From positions 7,491 to 71,490 of the forward strand of contig CAKVMH010000004.1 in assembly GCA_934772045.1 (NCBI GenBank): a stretch of DNA of 64,000 bases, given 5' to 3'. The first letter of the stretch is position 1, and every line of letters begins with the position of its first letter. This stretch comes from an uncultured Clostridia bacterium. GTDB taxonomy: Bacteria; Bacillota; Clostridia; Christensenellales; UBA1242. Of the stretch, positions 8,071 through 46,200 are shown piece by piece. Both the position numbers and the translations under genes were made by a program. The notes under the pieces are model-generated. The model saw only the letters and a list, made by a program, of their open reading frames with translations. It ran no database searches and was not told where the DNA came from.

Positions 8071-8130
8071 TTACATTTTCGTCAATTTTTCCTACATTTT
8101 GTTGACTTACTACATTTTGTAGGATATAAT
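8071..8130 (+). promoter_or_regulatory. Sigma-A-type promoter (TTGACT-17-TATAAT) with three TACATTTT repeats (candidate operators)
   Basis: -35 at 8102-8107 and -10 at 8125-8130. TACATTTT at 8072, 8093 and 8111. Inverted CCTACA/TGTAGG at 8091-8096 and 8118-8123 brackets the -35. Confidence 0.55.
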
Positions 8131-15110: not shown

Positions 15111-15923
15111 ATGAAGGAACAACAAGTTATTTATTTCAGTGATGAATTAAATGATGATTTTGCTGAAACGAAAGACGATATTAAACCGCTTAGTGATAAG
15201 TTTGTTTATTTCAGTACAAATCCGTTTTGGCAAATTAAACATTTTTTTTGGAATAAAATTGTTGCTTACCCAGTTGCCTACTTGCATGCCAAATGCAGGT
15301 TTAAGTGGAAAGTTAAAAATAAAAAACTTTTCAAAAAAGTTAAAAAGACAGGCTACTTTATTTATGGCAACCACACTCAGCAGTTCTTCGACGCGGCTAT
15401 GCCCAAAATCCTTGCAAACCATGAAGCATATGTCATGGTTAACCAAGTAAACTTAAATTTAAAAGGTTTAGGTTGGTTGGTCAAGCGTTTAGGTGCATTG
15501 CCAGTGCCAACTAATGTACACGAAACTAAAAGGTTTGTTTCGGCAGTTGACAAATTGATGGAAAAACACAAATCAATATTAATTTACCCAGAAGCACACA
15601 TTTGGCCATACTACACAAAAATTCGCCCATTTGTTTCCACTTCGTTTAGGTATCCAGTGAAGTACAATGTTCCTGCATTTTGTTTTACTAACACATATCA
15701 CAAACGAAAAAATGGTAAAGTGCAAATCACGACCTATGTGGACGGTCCATTTTATCCAAACACTGAATTGCCAACAAAAGAAAGGACACAAGCCTTGCGT
15801 GACCAAATTTACGAAACAATGGTTGAACGCAGTAAACTGAGTGATTATGAATTTGTGAAGTACATTAAAAAAGATACAAAGATAGAAAACTCAAATGAAA
15901 AAAATACAACACATAATTGTTAA
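15111..15923 (+). CDS. PlsC/LPLAT-superfamily acyltransferase
   Basis: YGNHTQQFFD and ILIYPEAHIWPY boxes. SD GGAGGA. Confidence 0.75.
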   Translation: MKEQQVIYFSDELNDDFAETKDDIKPLSDKFVYFSTNPFWQIKHFFWNKIVAYPVAYLHAKCRFKWKVKNKKLFKKVKKTGYFIYGNHTQQFFDAAMPKILANHEAYVMVNQVNLNLKGLGWLVKRLGALPVPTNVHETKRFVSAVDKLMEKHKSILIYPEAHIWPYYTKIRPFVSTSFRYPVKYNVPAFCFTNTYHKRKNGKVQITTYVDGPFYPNTELPTKERTQALRDQIYETMVERSKLSDYEFVKYIKKDTKIENSNEKNTTHNC

Positions 15924-16010
15924 ATTGGTGCATTAAGAACAGTTTAACATTTGTTAATTAATGTGTGTGCACACAAAATTATTAGTTAAATTTATAAAAG
16001 GAGTACACGA

Positions 16011-16877
16011 ATGATTAATGTTTTATTTTCAGGCAATTCAAAAGTGTTCGATGGTGCGTTGACCACTATGCTTTCAATATTCATGCGCACAACAACAAAA
16101 GAGCCATTTAAATTTTACATTTACACAATGGACATAACAAGGATAAAACCTGAATATACAGCAATTGATGATAAAATGGTTCAATTTTTGGACAAGGTTG
16201 CCAAAAGTTACAATGAAGAAAACAGTGTTGTAAAAATTGATGTAGGCGACTTATATAAGCAAGAGTTTGAAAACAGCCCAAATGAACAGTGCTATTGCTC
16301 ACCTTACACATTGCTTCGCTTATTTGCGGATCTTATCCCAGATGTGCCAGATAAATTGCTTTACCTTGATATTGACATTATGTTTAACCGTGACATTACA
16401 TTACTTTATAATCAAGACATTGAAGGATACGAGTACGCAGCGGCGCAAGATCATTATGGGAAATTCACAATAAACCCAAGGTATATTAATGCAGGCGTTT
16501 TGCTTCTTAATATGCCAGAAATTAAAAAGACAGGCTTATTTGCCAAAGCACGTAATTTGATTAAAACCAAGAAGATGTTATTCGCCGACCAAGATGCAAT
16601 TTGGCGTTCAACAACAAAATTTAAAACTTTGCCACAAAAGTTTAACGACCAAAAGTTTTGCCATAAATCAACAGTTGTAAGGCATTTCAGCAAAAGGCTG
16701 TTTTGGACGCCTTACCCACACACTGCGAACATCAAACAATGGCATGTAAGCAAGGTACACAAAGTGTTCCATTACTATCAATTTGACGACATTTTATATG
16801 AATACATTTACTTAAAAAAGTGTTATGAAAATAGTTTAAAAAATTTAAAAGGGGAAATAAAAAATGAACAAAAATAA
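16011..16877 (+). CDS. Glycosyltransferase family 8
   Basis: LLYLDIDIMF (DxD), INAGVLLLN, FADQDAIW. SD AAGGAG. Confidence 0.85.
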   Translation: MINVLFSGNSKVFDGALTTMLSIFMRTTTKEPFKFYIYTMDITRIKPEYTAIDDKMVQFLDKVAKSYNEENSVVKIDVGDLYKQEFENSPNEQCYCSPYTLLRLFADLIPDVPDKLLYLDIDIMFNRDITLLYNQDIEGYEYAAAQDHYGKFTINPRYINAGVLLLNMPEIKKTGLFAKARNLIKTKKMLFADQDAIWRSTTKFKTLPQKFNDQKFCHKSTVVRHFSKRLFWTPYPHTANIKQWHVSKVHKVFHYYQFDDILYEYIYLKKCYENSLKNLKGEIKNEQK

Positions 16878-17964
16878 AAAAGACAACATCATACCAATTA
16901 TCTTCACATGTGATGATAAATACATTCCATTTTTGGCAGTGTCGCTAGAATCTTTGGAAACAAATGCTTCACGCCAATACAAATATGATATTAAAATTTT
17001 GCATTCAAACAATGTCAGCGAAGAAAACCAAAATATTATACGCAACAAGTACAACAACAAAATTTTTAAAATCAGTTTTGAAGACATTTCATCATATGTC
17101 GAACTTATTGCAAGCAAATTACACACACGCGACTATTACTCAAAAGCAACATATTATAGGCTTTTCATTCCAAACCTATACAAACATTATGACAAGGTTT
17201 TATATTTGGACAGCGATATTGTTGTCCAAGGCGATATTTCAGAACTTTACAACACAGATTTAGGCAACAATTTTGTTGGCGCAATCCCTGATGAATTTGT
17301 ACAATGCACACCTCTTGCATGGGATTATGTTGAAAAGCACGTTCCACTAGGCAAAGGTAATCATACAAAATATTTCAATGCTGGCATTTTGCTTATGAAT
17401 TGCAAACGCTTGCGTGAAATTGACTTTGAAGGTAAATTTATTGATTTACTAGGCAAAGTTAAATTCCAAGTTGCACAAGACCAAGACTATCTAAACTGCA
17501 TTTGCCGTGGTAAGGTTAGGTTAATTAATTCAGTTTGGAACAAACAACCTTTCCCGTCAGCGACAATCAAAGAAAAGGATATTAAAATTTTCCACTATAA
17601 CTTAGATTTGAAACCTTGGAAAAAAGACGGCATTTTGTACGAAGATTATTTTTGGAATTATGCAAAATCAAGCGGTTATTTAAAAGATATTGCACAAATG
17701 AAAGCAAATGTAACAGAAGAATCTATTAAGTTAGCAGAAGAACAAACTAAAAACCTTTGTGAAAACATTGTCGCACAAGCAAACGATATTGTGGACAATG
17801 CAAGGATAAAGAAAATTGTTGACGAAATATTTAAAGATAAAGGTTCTCCATTAGTTAAAAATACAGTGGTTGCATGTGATGTGGAAGAATTGGAAAATGC
17901 AGACATATTCGCAGGGCTTGAATTAAGTTCAGTGCCAACCAAGCCACAAGGGCAGAATGGTTAA
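16864..17964 (+). CDS. Glycosyltransferase family 8 with C-terminal extension
   Basis: VLYLDSDIVV (DxD), FNAGILLMN, AQDQDYLN. 14-nt overlap with the upstream GT8 gene. Confidence 0.85.
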   Translation: MNKNKKDNIIPIIFTCDDKYIPFLAVSLESLETNASRQYKYDIKILHSNNVSEENQNIIRNKYNNKIFKISFEDISSYVELIASKLHTRDYYSKATYYRLFIPNLYKHYDKVLYLDSDIVVQGDISELYNTDLGNNFVGAIPDEFVQCTPLAWDYVEKHVPLGKGNHTKYFNAGILLMNCKRLREIDFEGKFIDLLGKVKFQVAQDQDYLNCICRGKVRLINSVWNKQPFPSATIKEKDIKIFHYNLDLKPWKKDGILYEDYFWNYAKSSGYLKDIAQMKANVTEESIKLAEEQTKNLCENIVAQANDIVDNARIKKIVDEIFKDKGSPLVKNTVVACDVEELENADIFAGLELSSVPTKPQGQNG

Positions 17965-18033
17965 TAAAAACTGTTAGTGTAAATTAACAACGATTTTGCA
18001 AGGTAAAAAATTCTTCAATTTTAAGGAGTAACA

Positions 18034-18888
18034 ATGGAAGAAATCAAAAAAGCACAAGATAGGTTAGAAGTTTTAAAGAAAATTGAAGAACTGGAAACAA
18101 AAGGCATATTCGATGTCGATGTTGAGGTCGACCCACCAACAATCGAACTTAAACCTAATGAAATTGATTATAAGCATAAAAAGCTATCAGATAAAATCAA
18201 AAGGTTTTTCACATACAAAATAGCTGGCAAAATGCTAAAAAAATTAAAAAATGACGGTATGTTTAGGCTTAATGAGATTGAAGGTCTTGAAAATATGCGC
18301 TCAGTTAAAACTGGGGCAATCGTCACCTGCAACCATTTTGGTGTGATTGACAGTTTTATTATGGACCAAACTTTCAGGCAAGCAAAATTAAAGCATAAAC
18401 GCATGTATAAAGTGATACGCGAAGGAAATTACACAAACCCGCCAAGGGGCTTTGAACCTATATTTAAATATTGCGACACTTTACCTTTAAGCCAAAATAA
18501 GGACACAATGAAAAAGTTTTTACGTGCCACTAATGAACTTTTACAAGAAGGCAATTTTGTGCTTGTCTACCCAGAAGAAAGTATGTGGTGGAATTACCGC
18601 AAGCCTAAGCCATTAAAAACAGGGGCATTCCGCTTTGCTGTTAAAAATAATGTGCCAGTCATTCCTTGTTTTGTCACAATGGAAGATAGCGACCAAATTG
18701 GCGCAGATGGTTTCCCTGTTCAAATACACACCATGCACATTCTTAAACCTATATATCTTGATAAAGGTCTAAACGACAAACAAAACATTGAAAATATGAA
18801 ACAGCAAAACTATGACATGTGGAAGGCGTTATATGAAAAAGTTTATAACAAACCTTTAACATATTTGTGCGATAAAAACGCCAAATAA
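18034..18888 (+). CDS. PlsC/LPLAT-superfamily acyltransferase
   Basis: Canonical HX4D (CNHFGVIDS) and LVYPEESMWW boxes. SD AAGGAG. Confidence 0.8.
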   Translation: MEEIKKAQDRLEVLKKIEELETKGIFDVDVEVDPPTIELKPNEIDYKHKKLSDKIKRFFTYKIAGKMLKKLKNDGMFRLNEIEGLENMRSVKTGAIVTCNHFGVIDSFIMDQTFRQAKLKHKRMYKVIREGNYTNPPRGFEPIFKYCDTLPLSQNKDTMKKFLRATNELLQEGNFVLVYPEESMWWNYRKPKPLKTGAFRFAVKNNVPVIPCFVTMEDSDQIGADGFPVQIHTMHILKPIYLDKGLNDKQNIENMKQQNYDMWKALYEKVYNKPLTYLCDKNAK

Positions 18889-21873: not shown

Positions 21874-22638
21874 ATGATGACTATTGGTGGCACAGCCCAT
21901 ATTTTAATGGTGTTGGCTTCTATTGTTGTTGTAGTGGTTTTGATGCTTATAATATCTCATATAAGTTATAAGTGGCAATGTGTAATGATTTATTCTGCTG
22001 TTATTGTTTGCATGATAGGGATAATGTTTTTGCATTTGACACACTATGGCAAAAGCCTTGACTTTAAAAATTTCTTTGTTCAAATGTTTCAGGTTTGCAA
22101 CTTCAACTTTATTTTGCTTCCGCTTTGCCTAATCAAGAAAAATGAATTGGCAAGACAATATTTATTTTATTTCTCAATGCCTTGTGCACTTTCAACATTT
22201 GTAACTTATGTATCTGATGTTGAAAATTCAATGTGGTATTCAGTGGTAACACTTAACTTCTGGATTGATCATTTGCTTGTTGTGCTTGTTCCTCTTTTAA
22301 TGATTGCAGCGCGTTGGATGAAGCCTCAGAAAAAATATGTTCTTTGGGTTTGCCTTTGCGTTTTAGCATATTTTGGTGTGTGCTTTCTTGCTAATTATGC
22401 ATTAAATGGCTTTAACATAAGCGGACCGCATAATCATTCATATACAATGGGACCTGACGGAATCATGGTTCTTGTCCCGCTTTTTAAACTTATACCAATC
22501 CCTTTTATATATCTGTTTCCAATGCTACCAGTCTGCGGAATTTTGTTCTATCTTGTTGCGTTGTGCTTCACAAAATATAAAACACTAGATATTTATACCC
22601 ATTCAGCCCAAACCGATTCAAAAAATTGTTTGAAATAA
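21874..22638 (+). CDS. Polytopic membrane protein, YwaF/TIGR02206-like
   Basis: 7-8 TM segments. FQVCNFNFILLPLCL and FWIDHLLVVLVPLL resemble YwaF-family signatures (recalled, not searched). Confidence 0.7.
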   Translation: MMTIGGTAHILMVLASIVVVVVLMLIISHISYKWQCVMIYSAVIVCMIGIMFLHLTHYGKSLDFKNFFVQMFQVCNFNFILLPLCLIKKNELARQYLFYFSMPCALSTFVTYVSDVENSMWYSVVTLNFWIDHLLVVLVPLLMIAARWMKPQKKYVLWVCLCVLAYFGVCFLANYALNGFNISGPHNHSYTMGPDGIMVLVPLFKLIPIPFIYLFPMLPVCGILFYLVALCFTKYKTLDIYTHSAQTDSKNCLK

Positions 22639-22665
22639 TATCATGAAAAAAACAAAGGAAAAAAT

Positions 22666-24165
22666 ATGTTTTATTTAATTTTGTTAATCGTTATTGCAGT
22701 TTTAATGGCCACCTATTGTATTTTAAGATTTTGTGTTTTTAAAGGAAACGAAAAATTTGCAAAAGTTATAAATAAAATTTTAAAAATCAGTGTTGTTGTT
22801 TATGCTTGTTTAATGCTTGTTTCTTTGATTTTGCCAGATGCCTTTGTTCTTAGTTATTCACAAGAAGATCTGGCATCAATGCCGGCAAGGTATGGCTATG
22901 CAATTGTAAGATGGTTCAGTATGGTTTCTTTTATCTGTTTGCCAATTGCAGTTTTTTATAAGAACCGAACAATAAGAAATATCGCAATTTATTTTTGCAC
23001 AATCATGACAATTGTTCAAATATGCTTCTTTAAACAATATCTTATAGATTTTACATCAACCGCAGGTAGGGGGCTTAATTCAATTTCAGTTATCTCTGAT
23101 GGCTTTAAACAATTTTTAATCAACCCAACATTCCGCTCAATTTGGTTTGGAATTCTAATGTGCCTACAACTTGTGATTCCTATTATTCTTGCTATTCAAG
23201 AGAGGCATGTGTTTGAGTTTAAAAATAAAAAAGAATATCTCAATTTCTTTATCACACTTCCTTTCATGATTTTATCTGCGCTTCCAATTTATGTGTTGCA
23301 ACACTTGTTTGGATATACAAATCTCATTTTTGAAGCATATGGCATAGTTCACTTCGCATGGATCTTCTTGATCGTCTGTGAAATTATTGCACTTTATTTT
23401 ATATTCAGGAAACGAAGTGAAGAGACTAAAATGGTTTTGCTTCTTGTTTTGTCTCTGTCACTTATAATGCAATATTTGCAAATGTTTTCGGCAATTTCAA
23501 TCAATGTGGCACGTTTACCTTTCCAACTATGCAACCTAGGATCTTTCTTTATTTTATTTTCGCTTATAACAAAAAATAAACATTTGTTTAACTTTACTGT
23601 GATTATAAATGTCATCGGTGTTTTGTTTGCTTTGGCAAGTCCAGATTTAGATAATAAAGGATTATTTTATCTTTACAACATGCATTTTATTCTGGAACAT
23701 GGCAACGTTATGATTATTCCTCTTCTTGCTTTGCTTTTTGGCATTTTCCCTAGACTTGACAAAACTGCATTAAAAGATTGCTTGATTGGCTTTACAATTT
23801 ACTTTGTCTGTGTTTGGGCTCTTGGAACGATGTTTAATGCAATTGCACTTAAAACAGGCAATGATTTCTGGGCAGCAAACTACCTGTTTATGTTTGACGC
23901 ATCAAAAGCTATAAAACTTCTGGGTGATGGTGTTGGAAAATTATTTGTATCTTTTAAAATTGGGTATGGAACATTGTATCCAGTGATTCAACTTGTTATT
24001 TATGTGGTGTTTATGGCTGTTTGCGTTCTTTTGTGGCTTTCAATCCAACTTATTTATAAACTAAAAGACATTGGCAAAAACAAAAAACAAAAACTTGCAG
24101 TTACAAGCGAGGTTGCACAAGGAAATAACGAATTTGTTGAAAATGAAAAGCAAGATAAACAATAA
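22666..24165 (+). CDS. Polytopic membrane protein; C-terminal half paralogous to the upstream YwaF-like gene
   Basis: LPFQLCNLGSFFILFSLITKNK and FILEHGNVMIIPLLALLFG parallel motifs in ORF 21874. Confidence 0.7.
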   Translation: MFYLILLIVIAVLMATYCILRFCVFKGNEKFAKVINKILKISVVVYACLMLVSLILPDAFVLSYSQEDLASMPARYGYAIVRWFSMVSFICLPIAVFYKNRTIRNIAIYFCTIMTIVQICFFKQYLIDFTSTAGRGLNSISVISDGFKQFLINPTFRSIWFGILMCLQLVIPIILAIQERHVFEFKNKKEYLNFFITLPFMILSALPIYVLQHLFGYTNLIFEAYGIVHFAWIFLIVCEIIALYFIFRKRSEETKMVLLLVLSLSLIMQYLQMFSAISINVARLPFQLCNLGSFFILFSLITKNKHLFNFTVIINVIGVLFALASPDLDNKGLFYLYNMHFILEHGNVMIIPLLALLFGIFPRLDKTALKDCLIGFTIYFVCVWALGTMFNAIALKTGNDFWAANYLFMFDASKAIKLLGDGVGKLFVSFKIGYGTLYPVIQLVIYVVFMAVCVLLWLSIQLIYKLKDIGKNKKQKLAVTSEVAQGNNEFVENEKQDKQ

Positions 24166-24623: not shown

Positions 24624-24700
24624 TGGTAGAGATGAGTGGACTCGAACCACCGACCCCCACCTTATCAGGGTGGTGCTCTAACCTGCTGAGCTACATCTCT
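24624..24700 (-). tRNA. tRNA-Ile (anticodon GAU), CCA encoded
   Basis: Reverse complement AGAGATGTAGCTCAGCAGGTTAGAGCACCACCCTGATAAGGTGGGGGTCGGTGGTTCGAGTCCACTCATCTCTACCA folds as a cloverleaf with anticodon loop CTGATAA. Confidence 0.95.
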
Positions 24701-24830
24701 ATATTAAATTGTTATGTTTTAGTGAGTTCATCTCTCAAACTCACCCAGATAAGGTGGTAACCCACTTATAAGGCAATCGCAAGCGATTATGCCTTGGCGT
24801 TCGCATGAAACTTCGTATCATGCTCGGCTA

Positions 24831-24865
24831 CAGGGTGGTGCTCTAACCTGCTGAGCTACATCTCT
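24831..24865 (-). pseudogene. Exact 35-nt copy of the tRNA-Ile 5' half (5' end through anticodon nt 34)
   Basis: 24831-24865 is identical to 24666-24700. It lies 165 bp upstream on the minus strand. No matching 3' half follows it. Confidence 0.9.
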
Positions 24866-25033
24866 TCGTCGCAATTCGCCTTTTAGCGAGTTTGCTTCTA
24901 GTTATCGCAAACGTCCGCTTGTTAGGCGTTTGCTCCTCTACAAAGTGGCAACAAAGTTTCCCCTTTGTGAACCCCTTGATTTAAAGAGGTGTATTTTGGA
25001 AACGGAAAACTAAATTTCACATCTCAAAATATT

Positions 25034-25049
25034 TTTGGTGGAGAATATC
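25034..25049 (-). repeat. Copy of the tRNA-Ala 3' end (acceptor 3' strand + CCA)
   Basis: TTTGGTGGAGAATATC at 25034-25049 equals 25140-25155, 106 bp downstream of the real 3' end. The adjacent hairpin CTGTTT...AAACAG gives a minihelix-like shape. Confidence 0.75.
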
Positions 25050-25141
25050 TGTTTGCAATAAATTACATAAACAGAATTCAACCACAAATGTTCTATGAAT
25101 TTGGCGAACACTAATTATGTTCGCCGTCTTCCTATAACATT

Positions 25142-25218
25142 TGGTGGAGAATATCGGATTCGAACCGATGACCCCTTGCTTGCAAGGCAAGTGCTCTAGC
25201 CAACTGAGCTAATCCCCC
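25142..25218 (-). tRNA. tRNA-Ala (anticodon UGC), CCA encoded
   Basis: Reverse complement GGGGGATTAGCTCAGTTGGCTAGAGCACTTGCCTTGCAAGCAAGGGGTCATCGGTTCGAATCCGATATTCTCCACCA. G3:U70 pair present. Confidence 0.93.
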
Positions 25219-26044: not shown

Positions 26045-26229
26045 AAAGGTCACTTTAAACTTTTAAGGCTCTGCCAAGAGAGTTTAAGGTTTACATAAAC
26101 TCGTTTTAATGTGAAAGCTTGCCATTTTACATTTAAGTAATAAATCAGGCACAATAAAACATAAAACCCCATTGATTCGTTTGACTTATGCTTAAAGATA
26201 GTGTAGGTTAATTGTACCTGAAATTGTCA

Positions 26230-26239
26230 GGGGGGGGGG
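26230..26239 (+). repeat. Homopolymeric G10 tract 4 nt upstream of the start codon
   Basis: GGGGGGGGGG followed by TAAT then ATG (26244). The only long G/C homopolymer seen in this AT-rich window. Confidence 0.95.
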
Positions 26240-26243
26240 TAAT

Positions 26244-28037
26244 ATGAGTAAAAATAAGAAAATACCAAAAGCTGTTTGGATACCGCTTGTGTCAGTTGGC
26301 GGAGCACTCCTAGTTGGGCTTTTGGTATTTTTGCTTGTGTATTTTTGCGTGCTTAAAGTTGACGTGAAAGCGTTTGCATCACAAATCGACCAGACACAAG
26401 CAATTGAATTAAAATGGGAAGCTCCAAAACAATTCGACAGCATAAAACTGTCTGTTTATCACGGCAATGATTTGGTTAATGTAAAGTATATAACCAAAGC
26501 AAGCCAAATGGCTAATAACAGCGCTACAATTGAAGGTTACTATGGCAGAATGACTGTAAAAGCACAATTCAAAAAGGGCATTTACAGCACAACAAAAACA
26601 TTTGAAGTTAATCTTTCAGCAGATGAATACAACATTGCACCTATCACTGCTACAATGCCGGTGACTTTGTTTACTTTGTCCTTAGATGAAATTACAAACA
26701 AGGGCACAATTCCAACATTTGTTTGGTTTAAACGTAGCGGTGCGTGGGATTGGACAAAACTTCCACAAAATGTTTACGAAATGCCTGTTGCAACTGCTGA
26801 GCAATTTTTGAACAGCAACCAAGATGTTATGTACAGTTCAACATCTAAATGGGTTAAAGAATTATATTCAATCAACAAAAACTCTAAATTTAATTTCTAC
26901 TACAACGATTATTATGCATATGGTTGGATGCAGGCAACAATCGCAAATGGTATACCAGCAGAAAACTATAAAGTAACATTGCTTTCAGATGGAACCGCTT
27001 CTTTCAATTATTTCAATAATCATTTGAACAACGCAAACTATGCATCTAATTATGAGGCAATGAAAGCAAATTACTTAAAATTAAAAGATGAAATTGCTTC
27101 TAAGAAAAAGTATACAGAATCAAGCAGAGGTTTCACAATTGACGCAAATACAGTGCGTGAGTACGCTTTTGTTATGGCAAAAGAAGAACCAAATGTAGAA
27201 TGGTGGTTAACGCGTACAAACGGCACATTAGGCACATATGTTTTGGATAGTGAAGCGGGTAAAACAGTTTACAGCGAATTTGTTCGCCCAACAGAAGGCA
27301 GTGCAATTCAAGTTAAAGATTTAAAAACATTGCTTGTTAAAATTGACCCACGTGTGGATACAAGCAACGCAAGTAAGACTGAAGAAGAAATCGAAGCAAT
27401 GGTTGCTGACAGATGGTTCAAAAAGGCTGATTTAAAGGCACTTTATAAATTCAGCGACACAATGTTTGAAGTTGCAGAACAAGCACATAAACAAGTTATG
27501 GTAATTTTAGGCACATGGACAGAAACTGAACAAGCCGACTATTTTGACAATTATGTTAAAGCAATCAAAGCATATTATGGCGACAATTATGTCTACTATT
27601 ATAAAGGTCACCCTAAAAACCCAACTGACACAGTTGAAGGTAAGCGTGCACACCTTGAAAATGATTTAGGTTTAATTGATATTGACTCAACAATTCCAGC
27701 TGAACTTATATTCTTCTTTAATCCAGAAGCATTTGGTTCAGGCTATCAATCGTCAACATTCCTTTCAGTTAGTGCTGAAAAGACATGTGCTATTATTAAG
27801 ACACGCAAGAGTGCGTTTGGTGAATCTTACAAGGACAATGTTGATGTATTCATGTCAACTAACACTTTAAACGCTGAAAAAACCGGTTTTGAAGCATCTT
27901 CAACTCAGGTTTTAATTGAGTTCAATAACAGCACAGCTTACGACATTGCAATTTACGATGTCACAACAAACACAATGAAATATTATAAATTAAACAGCAC
28001 AACTTCAATCTATGACGAAGTGCAAGTTGTAGGTTAA
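26244..28037 (+). CDS. Membrane-anchored protein with N-terminal beta-sandwich-like region and GT80 sialyltransferase-like GT-B domain
   Basis: N-terminal TM helix. TLLSDGTASF (D/E-D/E-G-like), YYYKGHPKNP (HP motif), IPAELIFFF and GYQSSTFLS line up with recalled PmST1 motifs YDDGS / FKGHPR / SFEVLMM / VASSLYF. Confidence 0.6.
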   Translation: MSKNKKIPKAVWIPLVSVGGALLVGLLVFLLVYFCVLKVDVKAFASQIDQTQAIELKWEAPKQFDSIKLSVYHGNDLVNVKYITKASQMANNSATIEGYYGRMTVKAQFKKGIYSTTKTFEVNLSADEYNIAPITATMPVTLFTLSLDEITNKGTIPTFVWFKRSGAWDWTKLPQNVYEMPVATAEQFLNSNQDVMYSSTSKWVKELYSINKNSKFNFYYNDYYAYGWMQATIANGIPAENYKVTLLSDGTASFNYFNNHLNNANYASNYEAMKANYLKLKDEIASKKKYTESSRGFTIDANTVREYAFVMAKEEPNVEWWLTRTNGTLGTYVLDSEAGKTVYSEFVRPTEGSAIQVKDLKTLLVKIDPRVDTSNASKTEEEIEAMVADRWFKKADLKALYKFSDTMFEVAEQAHKQVMVILGTWTETEQADYFDNYVKAIKAYYGDNYVYYYKGHPKNPTDTVEGKRAHLENDLGLIDIDSTIPAELIFFFNPEAFGSGYQSSTFLSVSAEKTCAIIKTRKSAFGESYKDNVDVFMSTNTLNAEKTGFEASSTQVLIEFNNSTAYDIAIYDVTTNTMKYYKLNSTTSIYDEVQVVG

Positions 28038-28070: not shown

Positions 28071-28103
28071 AAAAAATCACCCGCGTTCTGCTGGTGATTT
28101 TTT
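28071..28103 (+). terminator. Rho-independent terminator
   Basis: AAAAAATCACC-CGCGTTCTGCT-GGTGATTTTTT. Confidence 0.8.
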
Positions 28104-28120
28104 ATTCAATTAACAAACAA

Positions 28121-29243: not shown

Positions 29244-29639
29244 ATGGGGATAAACACAAATTCACACATTGACGATAGATACTTAAAGCCTTTAAAAAAA
29301 TTAGAAAAAGTTAAAACATTGTTAATTGAAACAAACAATAAGAACGAAATTCAAGCAATGATTGACTCGTTAAAGGGTCTTTCAGGTCTAATTCCAAAAG
29401 AAAAATACAATACATTGACGCAAATGATTGTTATTTTGCAAGATATGGAAAAGCAACAAAAGGACAAATGGTTTAAGTTGGACGGGGAGCTTTCTTTTGA
29501 AAATAGATTTTTTAGGCGAAGCGAATTAAAAAATAAATTAAAAAAACTTTCAAAATTGATTGTCGAATTAGGTAACGGCGTCGAAATGATGTACGACTTA
29601 AAAAGTCAAGAAAGTGAGTGTGCTGTGAAGTTATTTTAG
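29244..29639 (+). CDS. Small predicted helical protein, unknown function
   Basis: 131-aa ORF with SD GGAAGG and its own consensus promoter. Lys/Glu/Leu-rich. Confidence 0.7.
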   Translation: MGINTNSHIDDRYLKPLKKLEKVKTLLIETNNKNEIQAMIDSLKGLSGLIPKEKYNTLTQMIVILQDMEKQQKDKWFKLDGELSFENRFFRRSELKNKLKKLSKLIVELGNGVEMMYDLKSQESECAVKLF

Positions 29640-29669
29640 TTACAATTAATAAATGCTAAGGAGGTAAAT

Positions 29670-30122
29670 ATGGATTTTTATGCTTATATTGATTACATGA
29701 TTGTAAGAGAAGATGTGGATGAAAAAGTTAGGGATTTTTATAATATTTTTAGGTATGTGGCAAATTATTTAAGCGAAATTTTTAGTTCAAATGATGAAAC
29801 TTCTAGCGCAGATAATGAACTTTTATCCTTAAGAGTGTATGAAAACCTTATGTATATCGCAAAATCCGATTCTATTGCTGAAATTAAGGAATACATATTA
29901 ACATTGAAACTTTTGTTAGGGCAAATTAAAGATATACATAATCTAAAAGAACAAAATTTGGATATGCAAATTTGTGAGGCGAAGAATTTATTCGTTAAAC
30001 TTTCATTGATAATTAAACTTAAAAAAGAAAAGAAGTTTGGTAAACATTTAGACGAATTAGAAAAATTATGTCAAGACATGAATATGTTTGTTGACCCATA
30101 TTTAAATGCGTCAAAAGTTTAA
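29670..30122 (+). CDS. Small predicted helical protein, unknown function
   Basis: 150-aa ORF with strong SD AAGGAGG, 30 nt after the previous ORF. Confidence 0.75.
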   Translation: MDFYAYIDYMIVREDVDEKVRDFYNIFRYVANYLSEIFSSNDETSSADNELLSLRVYENLMYIAKSDSIAEIKEYILTLKLLLGQIKDIHNLKEQNLDMQICEAKNLFVKLSLIIKLKKEKKFGKHLDELEKLCQDMNMFVDPYLNASKV

Positions 30123-30187
30123 ATTTCGCATTTTAAATAAAAAACGTAATTAATTCAAAATTCGTGCCAACTTAAGTTATAAAATTA

Positions 30188-30215
30188 TTGACAATTTATC
30201 AATAAATGATATAAT
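30188..30215 (+). promoter_or_regulatory. Sigma-A-type promoter TTGACA-16-TATAAT with extended -10 TG
   Basis: Hexamers at 30188-30193 and 30210-30215, with TG at 30207-30208. Confidence 0.65.
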
Positions 30216-30237
30216 ACTTAAATTAATTGGAGAATTT

Positions 30238-30684
30238 ATGGCAAAGACAAAAAATAATGACAAGAATAGTGAATATGGATTGCAAAATACAATTGATGAA
30301 ATTGCTGAAAAAACATCTTTAATAATTGAATATTATCAAAATGTGGATAGAAGGACATCGTTGGGTAGGCAAGTTAAGGTTTTGGAAACAAACCTTCAAG
30401 CATTGCAAGAATCATGCACAGCAGATGCAAGTATAATGTGTAGTTTACAATTTGATAAAAGTTTAAAAGATATCAAATTAAACATTCAAAAAGAGGTTGA
30501 TGAAATGGCTGAAACAATTAAAAATAACAGCCCAACAATCTTTTCTAAAATGTCAATGAACAGGGCATTGAAAGATAAAAAGAATTTACTTGCTTTGGCT
30601 AAAAAGATAATTGAAGACAATGCAAAGTTTCGTGAGCTTTTAATTGCATGCGGTGCCGTTGCGGTACGTGGTAACAAAGATTAA
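30238..30684 (+). CDS. Small predicted helical protein, unknown function
   Basis: 148-aa ORF with SD GGAGAA, its own promoter and a terminator. Confidence 0.7.
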   Translation: MAKTKNNDKNSEYGLQNTIDEIAEKTSLIIEYYQNVDRRTSLGRQVKVLETNLQALQESCTADASIMCSLQFDKSLKDIKLNIQKEVDEMAETIKNNSPTIFSKMSMNRALKDKKNLLALAKKIIEDNAKFRELLIACGAVAVRGNKD

Positions 30685-37087: not shown

Positions 37088-40000
37088 ATGTTTGAATTAA
37101 ACAATTTTGACTCAATAAGAGTGGCAATTGCATCACCTGAAATGATAAGGTCATGGTCACGCGGTGAAGTTACAAAGCCAGAAACAATAAACTATCGTAC
37201 ACAAAAGCCTGAAAAAGACGGGCTTTTCTGTGAACGTATTTTTGGACCTAAAAAGGACTGGGAATGCCATTGTGGTAAGTACAAACGCGTGCGTTATAAA
37301 GGTGTTGTGTGCGATAAATGTGGTGTTGAAGTTACGCGTAGCAAAGTGCGTCGTGAACGCATGGGTCACATTGAACTTGCTTGCCCAGTAAGCCACATTT
37401 GGTTCTTTAAAGGTGTGCCAAGCCGTATAGGTATTGCATTGGATATGAGCCCAAAACTTTTGGACGAAGTTTTATACTATGTAAGTTACGTTGTGCTTGA
37501 CCCTAAAAACACTGAATTTGCATACAAACAAGTTATCCGCGATAAAGAATATCGCGAAGCACTTGAAAAGTATGGTCCAAATGGTTTCCGTGCAGGCATG
37601 GGTGCTGAAGCAATTAAAGAATTATTGGCAAATATTGACCTTGAAAAAGAACGCGATGAACTTACTGGAATTATGCACACCACAAAAGGTCAACGCAAAC
37701 TTAAAGCGACAAAAAGGTTGGAAGTTATTGAGTCATTTATCAAATCCGGCAATAAGCCAAGTTGGATGATTTTGGACGTGATTCCAGTTATTCCACCAGA
37801 TTTACGTCCTTTAATTCAAATTGATGGTGGCAAATTTGCAGCAAGTGACTTGAACGACTTGTATCGCCGTGTTATTAACCGTAACAACAGGCTTAAAAAG
37901 TTGATTGAACTTGGCGCCCCTGAAATTATCGTGCGTAACGAAAAGCGTATGCTTCAAGAAGCAGTTGACGCTTTGTTTGATAATGGTAAGCGTGGCAGGG
38001 CAGTGCAAGGTAGCCGTCAAAGAGATTTAAAATCATTGACAGCAAGCCTTAAAGGCAAACATGGTCGTTTCCGTCAAAACTTGCTCGGTAAGCGTGTTGA
38101 CTATTCTGGCCGTTCAGTTATCGTTGTTGGCCCAGAACTTAAAATTTATCAATGCGGTTTGCCAAAAATGATGGCACTTGAATTGTTCCGTCCATTTATT
38201 ATTAAACGTTTGTTGGAACTTAACGCAACAAACAACCTTAAAAAAGCAACAAGAATGATTGAGCAAGAACGCCCAATTGTTTACGACATATTGCAAGAAG
38301 TTGTTGAAGGACACCCAGTTCTTTTGAACCGTGCGCCAACCCTTCACAAACTTTCCGTACAAGCCTTTGAACCTATCCTCGTTGAAGGTAAGGCAATCCG
38401 TCTTCCACCTTTGGCGTGCGGTGGCTTCAACGCCGACTTCGACGGTGACCAAATGAGTATGCATGTTCCACTTTCAGTTGAAGCACGTACAGAAGCCCGC
38501 ATGTTGTTGTTGGCTTCAAACAACGTACTTAAACCTAGTGATGGTAGCCCTAACATGGTGCCTAGCCAAGACATGATTTTAGGTAACTATTACTTAACGG
38601 CAGTGCGCGAAGGTGCATTGGGTGAAGGTATGACATTTGCAAGCACTGATGAGGCACGACTTGCATACGAAAATGGCAAACTTAGCCTTCAAGCAAAAAT
38701 CAATTTGCGCCGTACTGTTGACTTTAATGGTGAAAAAGTTACTGGCCGTATTGAAACAACCCTTGGTAAAGTTATTTTCAACAGCATCATTCCACAAGAC
38801 CTTGGTTTTGTTCCACGCGACACAAAAGAAAACGCACTTCGTTTGGAAATTGAAGACGAAGTTAAAAAAGGTAACTATGGTAAATTGATTGAAACATGTT
38901 ATCGTAAACATGGCACAAACACCACAGTTACAATGATTGACGACATTAAGAACATGGGCTATAAATACAGCACACTTTCAAGCGTTTCACTTTCAATTTT
39001 CGATATGAAAGAAGCAGAAGAACGTGAACAAATCATTGCAGATGCAGACAAAATCGTTCAAGCGAATGACGAAATGTACATGCAAGGTTTGATGAGTTAT
39101 GCTGATAAATATAACAAAAACATGGCTGTTTGGGATAAAGCAGTTAATGACGTTGTTAAAATCACTTCCAGTCATTTGGATAAATTTAACTCAATTAAAG
39201 TTATTATCACATCAAAAGCCCGTGGTGGTGAAGACAGCTTGAAACAACTTTGCGGTGTTATTGGTAACACAGCGGTTGCGTCTGGTTCTGTTAGTGATGT
39301 TCCAGTTAAATCTAACTTCCGCCGTGGCTTAAACCCACTTGAATACTTCATGGCAGCACGTGGTAGCCGTAAACAATTGATGGATACAGCGCTTAAAACT
39401 GCTGACTCTGGTTACTTGACCCGTCGTTTGGTTGATATTGCACAAGATACAACCGTAACAGAAGAAGACTGCTTTGCAAACCTTGGCGAAACAGTTAAGG
39501 GTATTGATGTAACCGAAATTAAACAAAACGGCACAGTTGTTGAAACTTTGGAAGCACGTATTGTTGGTCGTTTCACTGCAATGCCAGTTATCGACCCTAA
39601 AACAAAGAAAGAAATCATTGGTGCAGACTGCTACATTAATGATGAAATGGCAAAAACAATTGCAAATGCAGGTGTTGAAAAAGTTAACATCCGTAGCTTG
39701 CTTACATGTAAGGCTAAAAACGGCGTATGTGCAAAATGCTATGGTCGTGATATGTCAACAAACGACCTTGTTCACATCGGTGAAGCAGTTGGTGTTATCG
39801 CTGCTCAATCAATTGGTGAACCAGGTACACAGTTGGTGCTTCGTACCTTCCACAGCGGTGGTACCGCTTCTAACGATATTACCTCAGGTTTGCCTCGTGT
39901 TGAAGAAATTTTCGAAGCACGCAATCCTAAGGGTGCCGCTGTTATCAGCGAAATCGGTGGTAAAGTTAGCATCAATCAAATTGACAAACGCTTTGAAGTT

Positions 40001-40660
40001 GTTGTTAAAGGTCAAACAGAAGAAAGTTACATTCTTCCATTTGGTTCAACAATCAAAGTTAAACAAGGCGATGTAATCACCCCAGGTACAGCACTCACCG
40101 AAGGTCCATTGAACCCACGTGATGTATTGCGTACACGCGGTGTGAAAGCCGTACAAGAATACTTACTTAACGAAGTTCTTGAAGTTTATAAATCACAATC
40201 TGTTGCTATTAACGCAAAACACTTGGAAATTATTATTAAACAAATGCTTCGTAAAGTTAAAATTGAAAACGCTGGCGACACAGATTTGTTACCAGGCGAC
40301 ATTGTTGATATCCGTGTTTACGAACAAGCTAACCAAAAGGCTTTGGCAGAAGGTGGTGTTCCTGCAACTGCTAAACGTGAACTTCAAGGTATCACAAAAG
40401 CAAGTTTGACAACTGAAAGCTTCTTGTCTGCTGCATCATTCCAAGAATCAAGCAATGTGTTAACAGAAGCTGCCTTGAAGGGTAAAGTTGACCACTTGAT
40501 TGGTTTGAAAGAAAATATCATTATCGGTAAGATGATACCTGCAGGTACAGGTGCACCTGCTTATCGTAATGTCCTTCCAAAACAAGTTAAGGAAGATAAC
40601 AGCCTATTCACAAACGAAAATGTCGACATGAAATTTGACGACATTGATGAAGAAGAATAG
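37088..40660 (+). CDS. rpoC: DNA-directed RNA polymerase subunit beta'
   Basis: 1190 aa with zinc motif [20 protein letters not shown] and catalytic NADFDGDQM. Confidence 0.98.
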
Positions 40661-43297: not shown

Positions 43298-46200
43298 ATG
43301 AAATCATTTACAAAGTATTTTAAAGTAATCTTATGCTTTATGGCGTTCGCTGTGGCAAGCTTTTTGTTCGCTTTTGCACCAACATTGTCCAGCTACGCAG
43401 CACTTCAAACAAGCATTAGTGGCTACAATATGGCTATTAAAGCAGTTAAAATGCCACGCAAAGCCTATGTTGATGAAACAACAGGTGCACAAAGTTTGCG
43501 CGTGCCACTTCTTACAACAGGCAATTCTTGGCAAGACACTGCTAAATACACAATCCGTGTAATTGACCCAAGCTTCACAGCTCACGATTTTAATGTTGAT
43601 GGTGCAAATGGCTCCACAAATGAAGCTGATGCTGGTTATTTCACAAAAATTAAAGTTAATGGTACAACAGTTGTTAAATCAACAGATGAAGGCTACGACA
43701 CCGCAAGCGGTGACGAGTTTGTTTCAATCAGCGCACTCAACAATGGTAAATATGACATTATTTACATTATGCAAGAGGGCGATGGTGAAAACGCTAAACG
43801 TTATTATTCTAACACCTATTCAATTACAGTTGAAAATGTTAGCTATAGTCTTGATTTTTCAATTCAAACAGAAGGCGAGTCAAAAGGCTTGAAAGTTTTG
43901 TTGCCTGAAACAGTTGCAAAATCAAATCAAGACAGCGCAAAAATTGCTTTACCAAAAGCAAATGTTAAAAACAACAAGTCAAAAGAATGCCTTGAAAATG
44001 TAAGCGTTGCTCCAAAAGTTTTCAACGATTATGGTAGGGAACTTAGCGAAGGCGAAATCTTCAAAAAGGAAGGGGACAACTATTATTTGTGCCCAACAAC
44101 TGAAGGTAAGTATACAATTGAATACACTTACGCATATGGTAACAACCCACCTAAAAAGTCTTTCACAATTGAAGTTGTTGACGGTTTTACAAAGCCAACT
44201 TCAAGTGATTTGACAATTGCAACTCCTACAATGCCTAGTGTTGAATTAGGTCAAAAAGAAGTTAAGTTACCAGATGTTACAGTTAGCAACAAAACAACAG
44301 ACGATGTTGAGCACAATGTTGTTTCAATTGAAATTAGCAAAGGTAGCATTTCAAAGAAATTAACAAATAATACATTTACTTTTGACATGACTAGGGAATT
44401 CTTTGAACAGTCAAAATATGACAATATGTTTGGCGCGTGGTCAGTTAAGTATACAATTCAAGATGCATATGGCAATGAGAAGTCAATTACGATGCAACTT
44501 GAAAATGTTGTAGACAACACAAACCCAGACGTATTCATGGCTTATGACTATGATATTGACACTACAACAGGTTTACCAGTTAATGCTGACAAAATTGACA
44601 CAACAGTTGTAACTGAACTTAAACCTGAATATGGTTACAATGAATTGTATTTCCCAGCAATTTACGCCAAGGATAATGTAACTGCTTACAATGAGTTTAT
44701 TTTTGTGCGTTACATTCAAAGCACACGTACAGACACAATTTACTACATTGATAATGTAATTGAAAAAGATGGTGAACGCCATGTTATCACTGCTGAAACA
44801 GATGCTGAACTTGCAAGCCAAATGAATGCATCTGGCGACGCAAATATTGGTTCACAAAACAAAGCTGTTAAATTTGATTTCAATGTTGAAGGCGAAACTG
44901 AAACAGAAAAGAATGCTAAAAAATCAGAACTCTCTGGCGAATATAAATTAGGTTATATGGTTATAGCAAAAGATAAGACCAAACAAAAAAGCTACTTATA
45001 CTCAGCAAACACAACCATGTATACCTTTGAAATTTTGCCTACACCAACAAGGGATATCACAACTTCAGTTGATCACACTGTTGAAATTAACAACATTAAA
45101 GATGGCATTTCAATTGCGAGCGATGGCAAACTTTCAGTCAACATAACAGCAAATGAAAAGAAACGTGGCGATTCAACAACTTATGCTGATAAACGCCTTA
45201 AAACTGCAGTGTTCTATTACTACACAACAACATCTACAAATATTAAAGGCGACATAAAATCAATCTTTGACAGCGTTAAAACTGACAGGGCAACAAACCA
45301 TGTTTACTATGGTAGTGAACACATCATTGATAGCGAAGCATTCATAACTGCAATGAAGGCTAAATTTACAGGCTTTGAATATGCAGAATTAAAAAATAAA
45401 AACAATTATGAATTGACTCTTAAAGATTATCAATCAAGTTATGGCAAACAAGCACATGTAATTGCAATTTCTATTGACGACGATGGCAACATTGCACTTG
45501 CAGACAAGCTTTTGAACATTAAGGACATGAACGATGTTACAGCCCCAAGTTGGACTTTGCTTTCAGGTGTTGGGCATGAACATAGTTTCACTGATACAGC
45601 ATTAGAAGTTAAACAAGGCACAGTTATTGAACTTCCTGACATCGAATTCACTGATGATGATAAGACATTAAGCATGAATGTTACTTACTATGTTAACTCA
45701 CCTATTAATGAATTAACAGGTTTTGATTATAAGGCGCCTATTGGTAAAAATTACAAAAATGTAAATGGCAAATCAATTGTTTATGGTGGTCAAATTAAAA
45801 CTGACATTGTAGGTGAATATCATGTTGTATATTCAGCAACCGATGATGCTGGCAACACAACATATGTGTACTTCACATTCAAAGTTACACCAGATGCTGA
45901 CCCAATTTTGAAAGTTTCAGCGACAGGTGAAGATATTACAGTTTCAGGTGCAAGTTCAATTACCGGCGAAATCGGTATGCAAGTTAACTTTGACGCAGTT
46001 TTATGGTCAAATGATTTAACACAAAACTTAACGAACGAATCTGGCGTTGTAATTGACTATACTGTTGAAGATGGCGGTAAGAGGTGGAGCACTGGTGATG
46101 ACGCAACAAGCTTCATTTTCAGTGAACAAGGTGATTACTACATCACTTTCACAGCAAAATATGGCAGTTACAATATTGAATCACAAAAATTCACAATCAG

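Follow-up and report, generated by a model that had tools for sequence, protein, structure and literature searches.

The poly-G tract and its gene

We analysed a 64,000-nucleotide (nt) stretch of DNA from an uncultured Clostridia bacterium (contig CAKVMH010000004.1, positions 7,491 to 71,490 of the forward strand), referred to below as the window, in which a run of ten G residues directly precedes a gene for a protein resembling the sialyltransferases of glycosyltransferase family 80 (GT80). The coding sequence (26244..28037, on the + strand, as are all features described here for this gene) specifies a 597-amino-acid (aa) protein that is predicted to be membrane-anchored and extracytoplasmic. 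The homopolymer, G10, occupies positions 26230-26239 and is followed by TAAT (26240-26243) and the ATG at 26244, so that the leader reads ...CCTGAAATTGTCA-GGGGGGGGGG-TAAT-ATG. It lies in the 5' untranslated region (UTR), downstream of the -10 box and outside the reading frame. The GC content of the window, taken from a window-averaged profile, is about 35%, and G10 is its sole run of six or more G or C residues. A first-order Markov model predicts 0.003 runs of ten or more G in a window of this kind, and the presence of G10 is thus confirmed as far above chance expectation.

The upstream regions of nine lineages were aligned; in the window and in a sister lineage the G tract falls on the canonical GGAGG Shine-Dalgarno (SD) element of the other seven. 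On this alignment the tract (26230..26239) is the only SD-like element of the leader, an SD that has been enlarged while its 3' edge stays at a constant 4 nt from the ATG. The same alignment supports a putative promoter, with a -35 hexamer TTGACT (26181..26186) and a -10 hexamer TAGGTT (26204..26209) that is preceded by TG and separated from the -35 hexamer by a 17-nt spacer. TTGAC is invariant in the alignment, and the position of the -10 hexamer relative to it is kept in nine of nine lineages, as TATGTT in the sister lineage and as TAACTT, TACAAT or TATACT in the others. A simple promoter scan of the window did not list this promoter because its -10 box is weak, and the assignment is therefore based on cross-species conservation. 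Between promoter and tract, the minimum free energy structure at tract lengths of at least 10 contains a 5'-proximal hairpin, CCUGA-AAUUG-UCAGG (26217..26231), the 3' arm of which takes the first two G residues of the tract. The leader itself is short and conserved, and the sister lineage has the same stem (CCUGA/UCAGG) with the loop AAUA. Past the gene, an intrinsic terminator hairpin followed by a U run is predicted at 28071..28108 (-17.8 kcal/mol, z = -5.8, with 0 of 200 shuffled sequences folding as well).

The sequence TAATATGA directly after the tract (26240-26247) places stops in both alternative frames, a TAA that abuts the tract and a TGA that overlaps the ATG, while the third frame past the tract runs open into the gene. 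At G11 or G14, therefore, gene-calling programs add 11-14 upstream residues and report variants of 608, 610 and 611 aa.

Tract length was compared among consensus assemblies, four of the window lineage and four of the sister lineage, whose protein is 92% identical in amino acid sequence. In the window lineage the tract was G10 in the window assembly and in L002, G11 in L086 and G12 in L001; in the sister lineage it was G11 in L003 and L004, G13 in L088 and G15 in L087. The four assemblies of the window lineage had no mismatches over 650 nt upstream and 2100 nt downstream of the tract. Because these flanks are identical in all four, the tract is the single variable site in 2.75 kb. Joint Genome Institute (JGI) metagenomes were also scanned for the tract with a pattern anchored in its flanks, which gave no matches. 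We consider it very likely that the tract is a genuine, selected hypermutable element.

These results confirm several points that a preliminary description of the locus had made from the window sequence: that a G10 run at 26230-26239 ends 4 nt before the ATG of a 597-aa open reading frame (ORF), that it is the only long G or C homopolymer present, that it doubles as the only SD-like element, and that it lies in the 5' UTR and not within the frame. The suggestion that the tract is length-variable, as in a phase-variation switch, is likewise borne out as to its hypervariability, since G10, G11 and G12 occur in identical backgrounds.

Poly-G tracts across the gene family

Homopolymer runs were counted in 80 loci that carry the homologous gene in other species (816,569 nt in all). 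Short runs were about as common in G as in C, with 165 G and 145 C runs of length 5, 15 and 16 of length 6, and 1 and 2 of length 7. Longer runs consisted of G only, with four runs of length 8, five of length 9 and one of length 14, and no C run at any of these lengths. The run-length distribution is thus bimodal and strand-specific. Of the 10 long tracts, nine fall in the interval from -150 to +280 nt relative to the homologous gene's start (P = 1.6e-11), and G8-G9 runs are found at the 5' end of this gene in 9 of the 80 other species, at positions that differ and are not homologous.

The tracts occupy several kinds of site. In L015, a G8 run forms part of the promoter spacer between TTGACT and TAAAAT, and in L085 a G9 run abuts TATAAT. 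Codons 9-11 are made up by a G9 run in L017; a G9 run marks the end of the transmembrane (TM) segment in L037, and another lies directly past this segment in L051. The G8 run of L064 is within a lipoprotein signal peptide, those of L027 (G8) and L053 (G9) are in an immunoglobulin (Ig)-like domain, and that of L018 (G8) is about 147 nt upstream of the start.

At the deposited tract lengths, the gene is out of frame by one G in L064, L051 and L027. For the L027 species both states are present in public assemblies, from different samples. The ON allele is found in the protein collection as a full-length product of 572 aa that reads ...SYDVGGGIYGYIDV..., whereas the OFF products are a 101-aa fragment ending in ...SYDVGGGFTDILM* and a 471-aa remainder. 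On sequence evidence, poly-G tracts in this one gene family have evidently arisen independently at least eight times, which is a convergent signature of contingency loci. The earlier idea of phase variation, which had been put forward for the window gene, is strengthened by these independent tracts in nine other species and by the ON and OFF alleles in public assemblies.

Other forms of inactivation were also seen. In L018 a tract in the coding region is decayed and interrupted (CCGGGGGTGGG) with a +1 shift, and the gene is OFF (L018:472-575). The family gene of L010 is split by a stop codon into ORFs of 282 and 290 aa (L010:5983-7764), and that of L011 has an early frameshift (L011:1640-1760). 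The family gene in L010, L011 and L018 appears to be inactivated by other means.

About 375 nt downstream of the family gene in L014, an unrelated gene (L014:8065-9235) carries a G14 run (8085-8098) at codons 7-11. This second gene is in frame at G14, and its product has a short tail followed by a TM helix and then an extracellular part, which suggests that these genomes hold further poly-G contingency genes for surface proteins. The long tracts are always G on the sense strand and never C, in the ten of other species as well as in the window and sister lineages, and this includes the non-coding tracts at promoters and SD elements. A replication-strand bias or a role at the RNA level are possible reasons for this preference.

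Homopolymer contingency loci are textbook elements in Neisseria, Haemophilus, Campylobacter and Helicobacter, and homopolymers in promoter spacers are known from Neisseria opc, porA and fetA and from Bordetella fim. The promoter-spacer systems are matched by L015 and L085, but not by the window's own tract. The lipooligosaccharide (LOS) and lipopolysaccharide (LPS) glycosyltransferase genes of the four former genera carry 5' poly-G tracts, in which slipped-strand mispairing generates in-frame and out-of-frame alleles, exactly as in L017, L027, L037, L051, L053 and L064. The gonococcal lgt locus is an example of LOS glycosyltransferases under poly-G control (PMC2191774). Unlike in these genes, the tract of the window species is an SD element and is not in frame, the enzyme is predicted to be extracytoplasmic, and the host is an uncultured gut Clostridia bacterium. 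A poly-G run in the 5' UTR is also found in uspA1 of Moraxella catarrhalis. In Helicobacter pylori, the variable leader G-repeat of tlpB (hp0102) is the target of the small RNA (sRNA) RepG (PMC8295292). Both resemble the window locus in having a hypervariable G run in the 5' UTR, and in both the expression of a surface or glycan-related function is graded by run length; they differ from it in that the window's run is the SD itself, 4 nt from the ATG.

Protein architecture, relation to GT80 and genomic setting

The AlphaFold2 model of the 597-aa protein (mean predicted local distance difference test, pLDDT, 89.9) consists of a TM helix, an Ig-like sandwich, a GT-B module of two Rossmann domains and a small C-terminal beta domain, with an extra insertion at about aa 330-400. 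The N-terminal TM anchor (aa 9-36; 26268..26351) is modelled as a helix with a Lys-rich cytoplasmic tail in front, and the Ig-like beta-sandwich (aa 40-125; 26361..26618) has modelled strands spanning aa 42-124. An N-terminal hydrophobic segment was found in 216 of 257 relatives, and 46 of these 216 have a lipobox-like motif by regular-expression search, several of them being clear lipoprotein signals. Among longer relatives there are fusions to SLH domains, ChW repeats, ricin-B lectin domains, Listeria-Bacteroides repeats or BspA-type leucine-rich repeats, all of which are extracellular modules. From these N-termini and fusion partners, the catalytic module is predicted to be displayed outside the membrane. 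Such a location fits phase variation, as surface-exposed proteins are its typical targets, and it raises a donor-supply problem for an enzyme that uses a cytidine monophosphate (CMP)-linked sugar.

When the model was compared with the PDB by Foldseek, the top five matches were all GT80 structures: 4r83 (two chains), 2z4t, 8u9i and 2ihz, with E-values from 1.9e-15 to 2.5e-9, a probability of 1.0 and template modeling (TM) scores, normalised to the target, of 0.47-0.62. They represent enzymes of Photobacterium damselae (two chains) and Photobacterium sp. JT-ISH-224, and PmST1 twice. The best matches are the Photobacterium enzymes with an N-terminal Ig-like domain (521-528 aligned columns). Other GT-B enzymes followed with E-values of about 3e-5 or worse, and no structure of GT38, the alpha-2,8-polysialyltransferases, was among the top 50 matches.

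Sequence comparison gave a more restricted similarity. With PF11477 (GT80) the protein scored 15.5 bits (E 0.0087), below the curated cutoff of 25 bits and with a match limited to aa 442-520, and only 4 of 36 relatives reached E <= 0.01. PF07388 (GT38) gave 19.9 bits, also below its cutoff (23.3 bits), with the match confined to the HP region (aa 428-491), and 13 of the 36 relatives reached E <= 0.01. A scan of NCBIfam returned nothing relevant. Matches to transthyretin/HIUase (PF00576, TIGR02962; aa 331-426) were far below threshold and were rejected as chance matches in the insertion. Searches of PDB sequences with the whole protein, either as a single sequence or as a full-length profile, gave no GT80 match, the profile returning only a chance match to folliculin. 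GT80 was reached by sequence only when the profile was restricted to the C-terminal Rossmann domain: this search placed 14 GT80 chains first (PmST1, E 4e-4), and hhalign of the domain against PmST1 gave a probability of 82.7% and an E-value of 9.5e-6.

Residues were matched to PmST1 through the C-domain profile and hhalign alignments, conservation was assessed over 36 sequences, and the PmST1 numbering was checked against 2ex0_A. The HP motif YYKGHP (aa 452-457; 27597..27614) is invariant from Y452 to P457, and H456 aligns with His311 of PmST1 (YFKGHP). E487 in AEL (27702..27704) is also invariant and aligns with Glu338 in FEV. S503-S504 (27750..27755) align with Ser355-Ser356; S503 is at least 90% conserved, and those sequences that were inspected visually had Ser or Thr at position 504. 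The equivalents of these residues, His311, Glu338 and Ser355/Ser356, are reported to be catalytically important in PM0188, in which His311 contacts the CMP phosphate (PMC4202792). A candidate for the D/E-D/E-G motif that holds the catalytic base is S248-D249-G250 (26985..26993), with D249 and G250 invariant and S248 at least 90% conserved. A profile of the N-terminal domain found no match in the PDB, and hhalign with the PmST1 N-domain gave a probability of 0.3%; since neither search gave an alignment, D249 is only tentatively equated with Asp141 of PmST1. The N-terminal half, which would bind the acceptor and hold the catalytic base, thus resembles GT80 by fold only.

The family itself is large. 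A first homology search, in which the 8,000 best candidates were scored, yielded 273 proteins at E <= 0.001, and there were 273 matching stretches in GTDB species-representative genomes. Among 50%-identity cluster representatives 537 matches had E <= 0.001, and the best 150 of the 537 were all close family members. A 91-aa fragment of PmST1, identical to PDB 2ex0, had no match in the collection of 5.8 billion proteins, and this collection therefore cannot bridge the family to GT80.

Taken together, sequence comparison and the predicted fold place the protein in a distinct family, a distant sister of GT80 among the sialyltransferase-like GT-B enzymes that have an HP motif; by curated criteria it is not a GT80 member. 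The two groups have in common the GT-B fold of two Rossmann domains, for which GT80 enzymes (PmST1/PM0188 and the alpha2,6-sialyltransferases of P. damselae and Photobacterium sp. JT-ISH-224) are the nearest solved structures, and the His, Glu and Ser-Ser of the CMP site. The Photobacterium enzymes also have an N-terminal membrane anchor and an Ig-like domain, and export or anchor signals are known among GT80 enzymes. In contrast to GT80, the window protein stays below the Pfam thresholds, lacks detectable sequence similarity in its N-terminal half, has S-D-G in place of D-D-G, carries the insertion and the C-terminal beta domain, and has an activity predicted from sequence and model. It also belongs to a gut anaerobe of Gram-positive lineage, and has relatives with fused SLH, ChW or ricin modules.

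The preliminary assignment to GT80 therefore holds for the fold and for the CMP-site residues and not for the Pfam threshold. The description had aligned the C-terminal ~400 aa with GT80 by eye, but only ~130-160 C-terminal residues align by sequence. Three of its four motif pairings were reproduced by profile alignment (as YYKGHP with YFKGHP, AEL with FEV and SS with SS), and the fourth, SDGT with the catalytic YDDGS, was returned by no sequence method. The predicted TM anchor followed by a beta-sandwich, and the likeness of this layout to that of the Photobacterium enzymes, are both reproduced in the model. Its further cautions, that the glycosyltransferase domain lies outside the membrane and that the window holds no genes for CMP-sialic acid synthesis, are correct, the former as a feature of the whole family.

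The gene is flanked by a rubrerythrin gene and by a convergent gene for a metallo-beta-lactamase (MBL)-fold hydrolase. Clustering of neighbouring ORFs in the 80 loci gave no conserved neighbour gene, and together with the terminator this indicates a solitary, monocistronic unit. Pfam annotation found no neuA/B/C-like genes for CMP-nonulosonate or CMP-sialic acid synthesis in the window, and none were found beside the gene in the loci of the 80 species. The window is ordinary chromosome and includes, among others, genes for a UvrD-like helicase, dnaX, recR, secA, rpoB, dnaE, whiA and murB; a 1,190-aa ORF at 37088-40660, which was not included in the scan, occupies the position of rpoC. The nearest genomes are all metagenome-assembled genomes of uncultured gut Clostridia, Eubacteriales or Christensenella-like bacteria, from humans (Hadza, Nepal), ruminants, rabbits and mice.

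Apart from housekeeping genes, Pfam annotation of the window gave only two GT8 genes and acyltransferases 8-11 kb upstream of the gene. The latter form a four-gene block in the order acyltransferase, GT8, GT8, acyltransferase (15111-18888, +), 7-11 kb upstream of the tract, which may be a cassette for glycolipid or cell-envelope glycosylation; no link between it and the GT80-like gene was established. Three consecutive small ORFs of 131, 150 and 148 aa (29244-30684, +) have no Pfam match. In assemblies of the window lineage this trio is conserved downstream of the MBL gene, and the sister-lineage locus L003 likewise has at least the first two downstream (129 and 150 aa). Genes for tRNA-Ile(GAU) and tRNA-Ala(UGC) stand alone at 24624-25218 (-), and no rRNA gene was found in the window by Rfam; this tRNA pair usually lies in the 16S-23S spacer. 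Two adjacent genes at 21874-24165 (+) encode TMEM164-family membrane proteins of 254 and 499 aa, the second with an extra N-terminal half of ~220 aa. A 1296-aa ORF at 43298-47188 (+) encodes a large uncharacterised surface protein that has a signal peptide at its N-terminus and a TM anchor at its C-terminus but no Pfam match at E <= 1e-4, and a 547-aa ORF at 8205-9848 (+) has a lipoprotein-type signal (…CMTACAK…) and no Pfam match.

Proposed mechanism and alternative explanations

We propose that the locus is probably a contingency locus, either phase- or volume-variable, for a GT80-like surface enzyme in an uncultured gut Clostridia bacterium. An ancestral GGAGG SD would have expanded into an uninterrupted G run in the window lineage, and slipped-strand mispairing at replication would shift the length of this run far faster than other sites mutate. 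Changes in length would then alter translation initiation, for which several routes can be envisaged. The register or strength of SD/anti-SD pairing may change, including pairing that is too stable with the pyrimidine-rich 3' end of 16S rRNA; the distance that separates the SD from the 5' hairpin, which takes up the first two G residues, may change; an RNA G-quadruplex may form from G11 upward; or a C/U-rich sRNA may bind the run, as RepG does on tlpB in H. pylori (PMC8295292). For the last of these, no C run of at least 6 occurs in the window, and a C/U-rich sRNA partner was not sought genome-wide. The outcome would be a population heterogeneous in the amount of surface enzyme. This enzyme would most likely transfer a CMP-activated nonulosonic or ulosonic acid to extracellular glycans, or run the CMP-dependent reverse (trans-sialidase) reaction on them. 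Phage, immunoglobulin or niche changes are examples of pressures that could select for switchable expression, and such selection would account for the poly-G tracts that this gene has acquired in unrelated species, the tracts of relatives sitting where the predicted consequence is a clear ON/OFF switch.

Several observations weigh against this proposal. The tract always ends 4 nt before the ATG, and all lengths from 10 to 15 keep a G-rich SD at a usable spacing. Because every length still offers such an SD, the effect on expression could be small, and graded rather than ON/OFF. The G-quadruplex route comes from an energy model only: ViennaRNA predicts a two-tetrad quadruplex from G11, a three-tetrad quadruplex from G15 and none at G10. 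The lengths come from consensus assemblies, so that variation is seen between assemblies rather than within one population, and homopolymer lengths are error-prone in short-read assemblies, which we regard as a minor caveat. As to the enzyme, the scores for both Pfam families are below their thresholds, the N-domain searches failed to reach GT80, genes for CMP-nonulosonate synthesis are missing from the window and from the neighbourhood of the gene in the 80 loci, and the protein would be a CMP-sugar transferase outside the membrane of a Gram-positive-type cell, with no obvious donor supply.

It is quite possible that the protein is not a sialyltransferase. It may be a surface GT-B protein that uses another CMP donor (legionaminic acid, pseudaminic acid or Kdo), a CMP-dependent sialidase or trans-sialidase, or an adhesin for host or dietary glycans. 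This would agree with the sub-threshold GT80 and GT38 scores, the unrelated sequence of the N-domain, the S-D-G motif where D/E-D/E-G is expected, the extracellular location with lectin and cell-wall-anchor fusions among relatives, and the lack of a nearby donor pathway. Sialidase and trans-sialidase activity is documented for GT80 enzymes (PMC10795189), and HP and D/E-D/E-G motifs also occur in candidates for non-sialyl transferases (PMC7439481). Against it, the family shows little or no variation at the CMP-site His, Glu and Ser-Ser, which align with their PmST1 counterparts, and the nearest structures are exclusively GT80 sialyltransferases. We regard true sialyl transfer by the protein as somewhat less likely than not.

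An extracellular role for such an enzyme is conceivable, since GT80 enzymes show sialidase and trans-sialidase activity by reverse sialylation (PMC10795189) and since surface sialyltransferases that use a host donor exist. Lst of Neisseria gonorrhoeae, a member of GT52, is a surface-exposed sialyltransferase that uses host CMP-Neu5Ac. It is an earlier case of a sialyltransferase that works outside the cytoplasm with no donor pathway of the cell's own, and differs from the window protein in belonging to another glycosyltransferase family, in its location at a Gram-negative outer membrane and in having no homopolymer control.

The tract could also be a neutral hot spot, an SD-derived G run that drifts by slippage without effect on expression, all lengths of ~7 or more being equal as an SD. 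The constant TAAT-ATG boundary, which always leaves an SD at a spacing of 4-9 nt, and the range of observed lengths, 10-15 only and none removing the SD, are consistent with this, as is the mean unpaired probability over SD and AUG of 0.34-0.56 for G6-G16 (ViennaRNA without G-quadruplexes). Yet two lineages with an 8% difference between their proteins have both retained the run without interruption, whereas unselected runs are normally broken by point mutation, as in L018, and the family gained tracts independently at least eight times at positions with a clear ON/OFF consequence. We therefore consider neutral drift unlikely.

That the length differences are assembly or sequencing artefacts over a tract of fixed length is highly unlikely. 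Such errors could be expected from consensus assemblies, as G runs of at least 10 are hard for short-read chemistry, but the eight independent assemblies come from different projects and assemblers and span 10-15, wider than the typical error of plus or minus 1. Moreover, the ON and OFF forms in the L027 species each recur in several assemblies, including a 487-kb contig, and the presence of the tract itself is beyond doubt. Least plausible of all is that upstream in-frame starts (TTG 26225; ATG in the sister lineage) make the tract Gly-coding and modulate initiation by coupling or interference, with an N-terminally extended protein at G11/G14, a stop at the TGA overlapping the ATG (ATGA) at G10 and at a TAA one nt before the ATG at G12: the stops within TAATATGA and the gene calls of 608, 610 and 611 aa at G11 and at L087 (a 14-G run then GAAT; uninterrupted G15) would allow it, but the upstream starts have no SD, the predicted transcription start at ~26216 would exclude the first TTG, and the main ATG keeps a strong SD of its own in every state, so that no OFF state is predicted.

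Returning to the proposed contingency locus, a broader and quite improbable extension would be that a large, previously unrecognised gut-Clostridia family has built on the GT80 scaffold extracellular CMP-recycling trans-sialidases or scavengers of host CMP-sialic acid, which transfer sialic acids, or other nonulosonic acids, of host or mucin origin to bacterial glycans or to neighbouring ones. Strong fluctuating selection by phage, IgA or niche changes would then have led independently to poly-G switches in at least eight lineages, one of them a new type of switch in which the homopolymer is the SD.

The locus belongs to the well-known class of simple sequence repeat (SSR) contingency loci, having an uninterrupted homopolymer of at least 8 nt at a surface gene and length polymorphism in an identical background. 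New are the taxon, uncultured gut Clostridia, the convergent recurrence of tracts across one uncharacterised extracellular family, and, judging from the alignment, the use of the homopolymer itself as the ribosome-binding site. We found no description in the literature of this protein family or of SSR phase variation in uncultured gut Clostridia, and the literature found on gut phase variation concerns invertons. Most of the phase variation mapped so far in the human gut microbiota consists of DNA inversions, in Bacteroidales and in some Firmicutes.

Because the family gained poly-G tracts on repeated occasions, and public metagenome assemblies contain its ON as well as its OFF alleles, the protein would be a prime target of fluctuating surface selection. 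A hypermutable homopolymer that serves as ribosome-binding site is an unusual regulatory arrangement. The widespread, uncharacterised family is predicted to keep a sialyltransferase-type CMP-binding site and yet to be displayed outside the cell; if active, its members would represent a new commensal route to sialylated or nonulosonate glycans and a possible source of biocatalysts.

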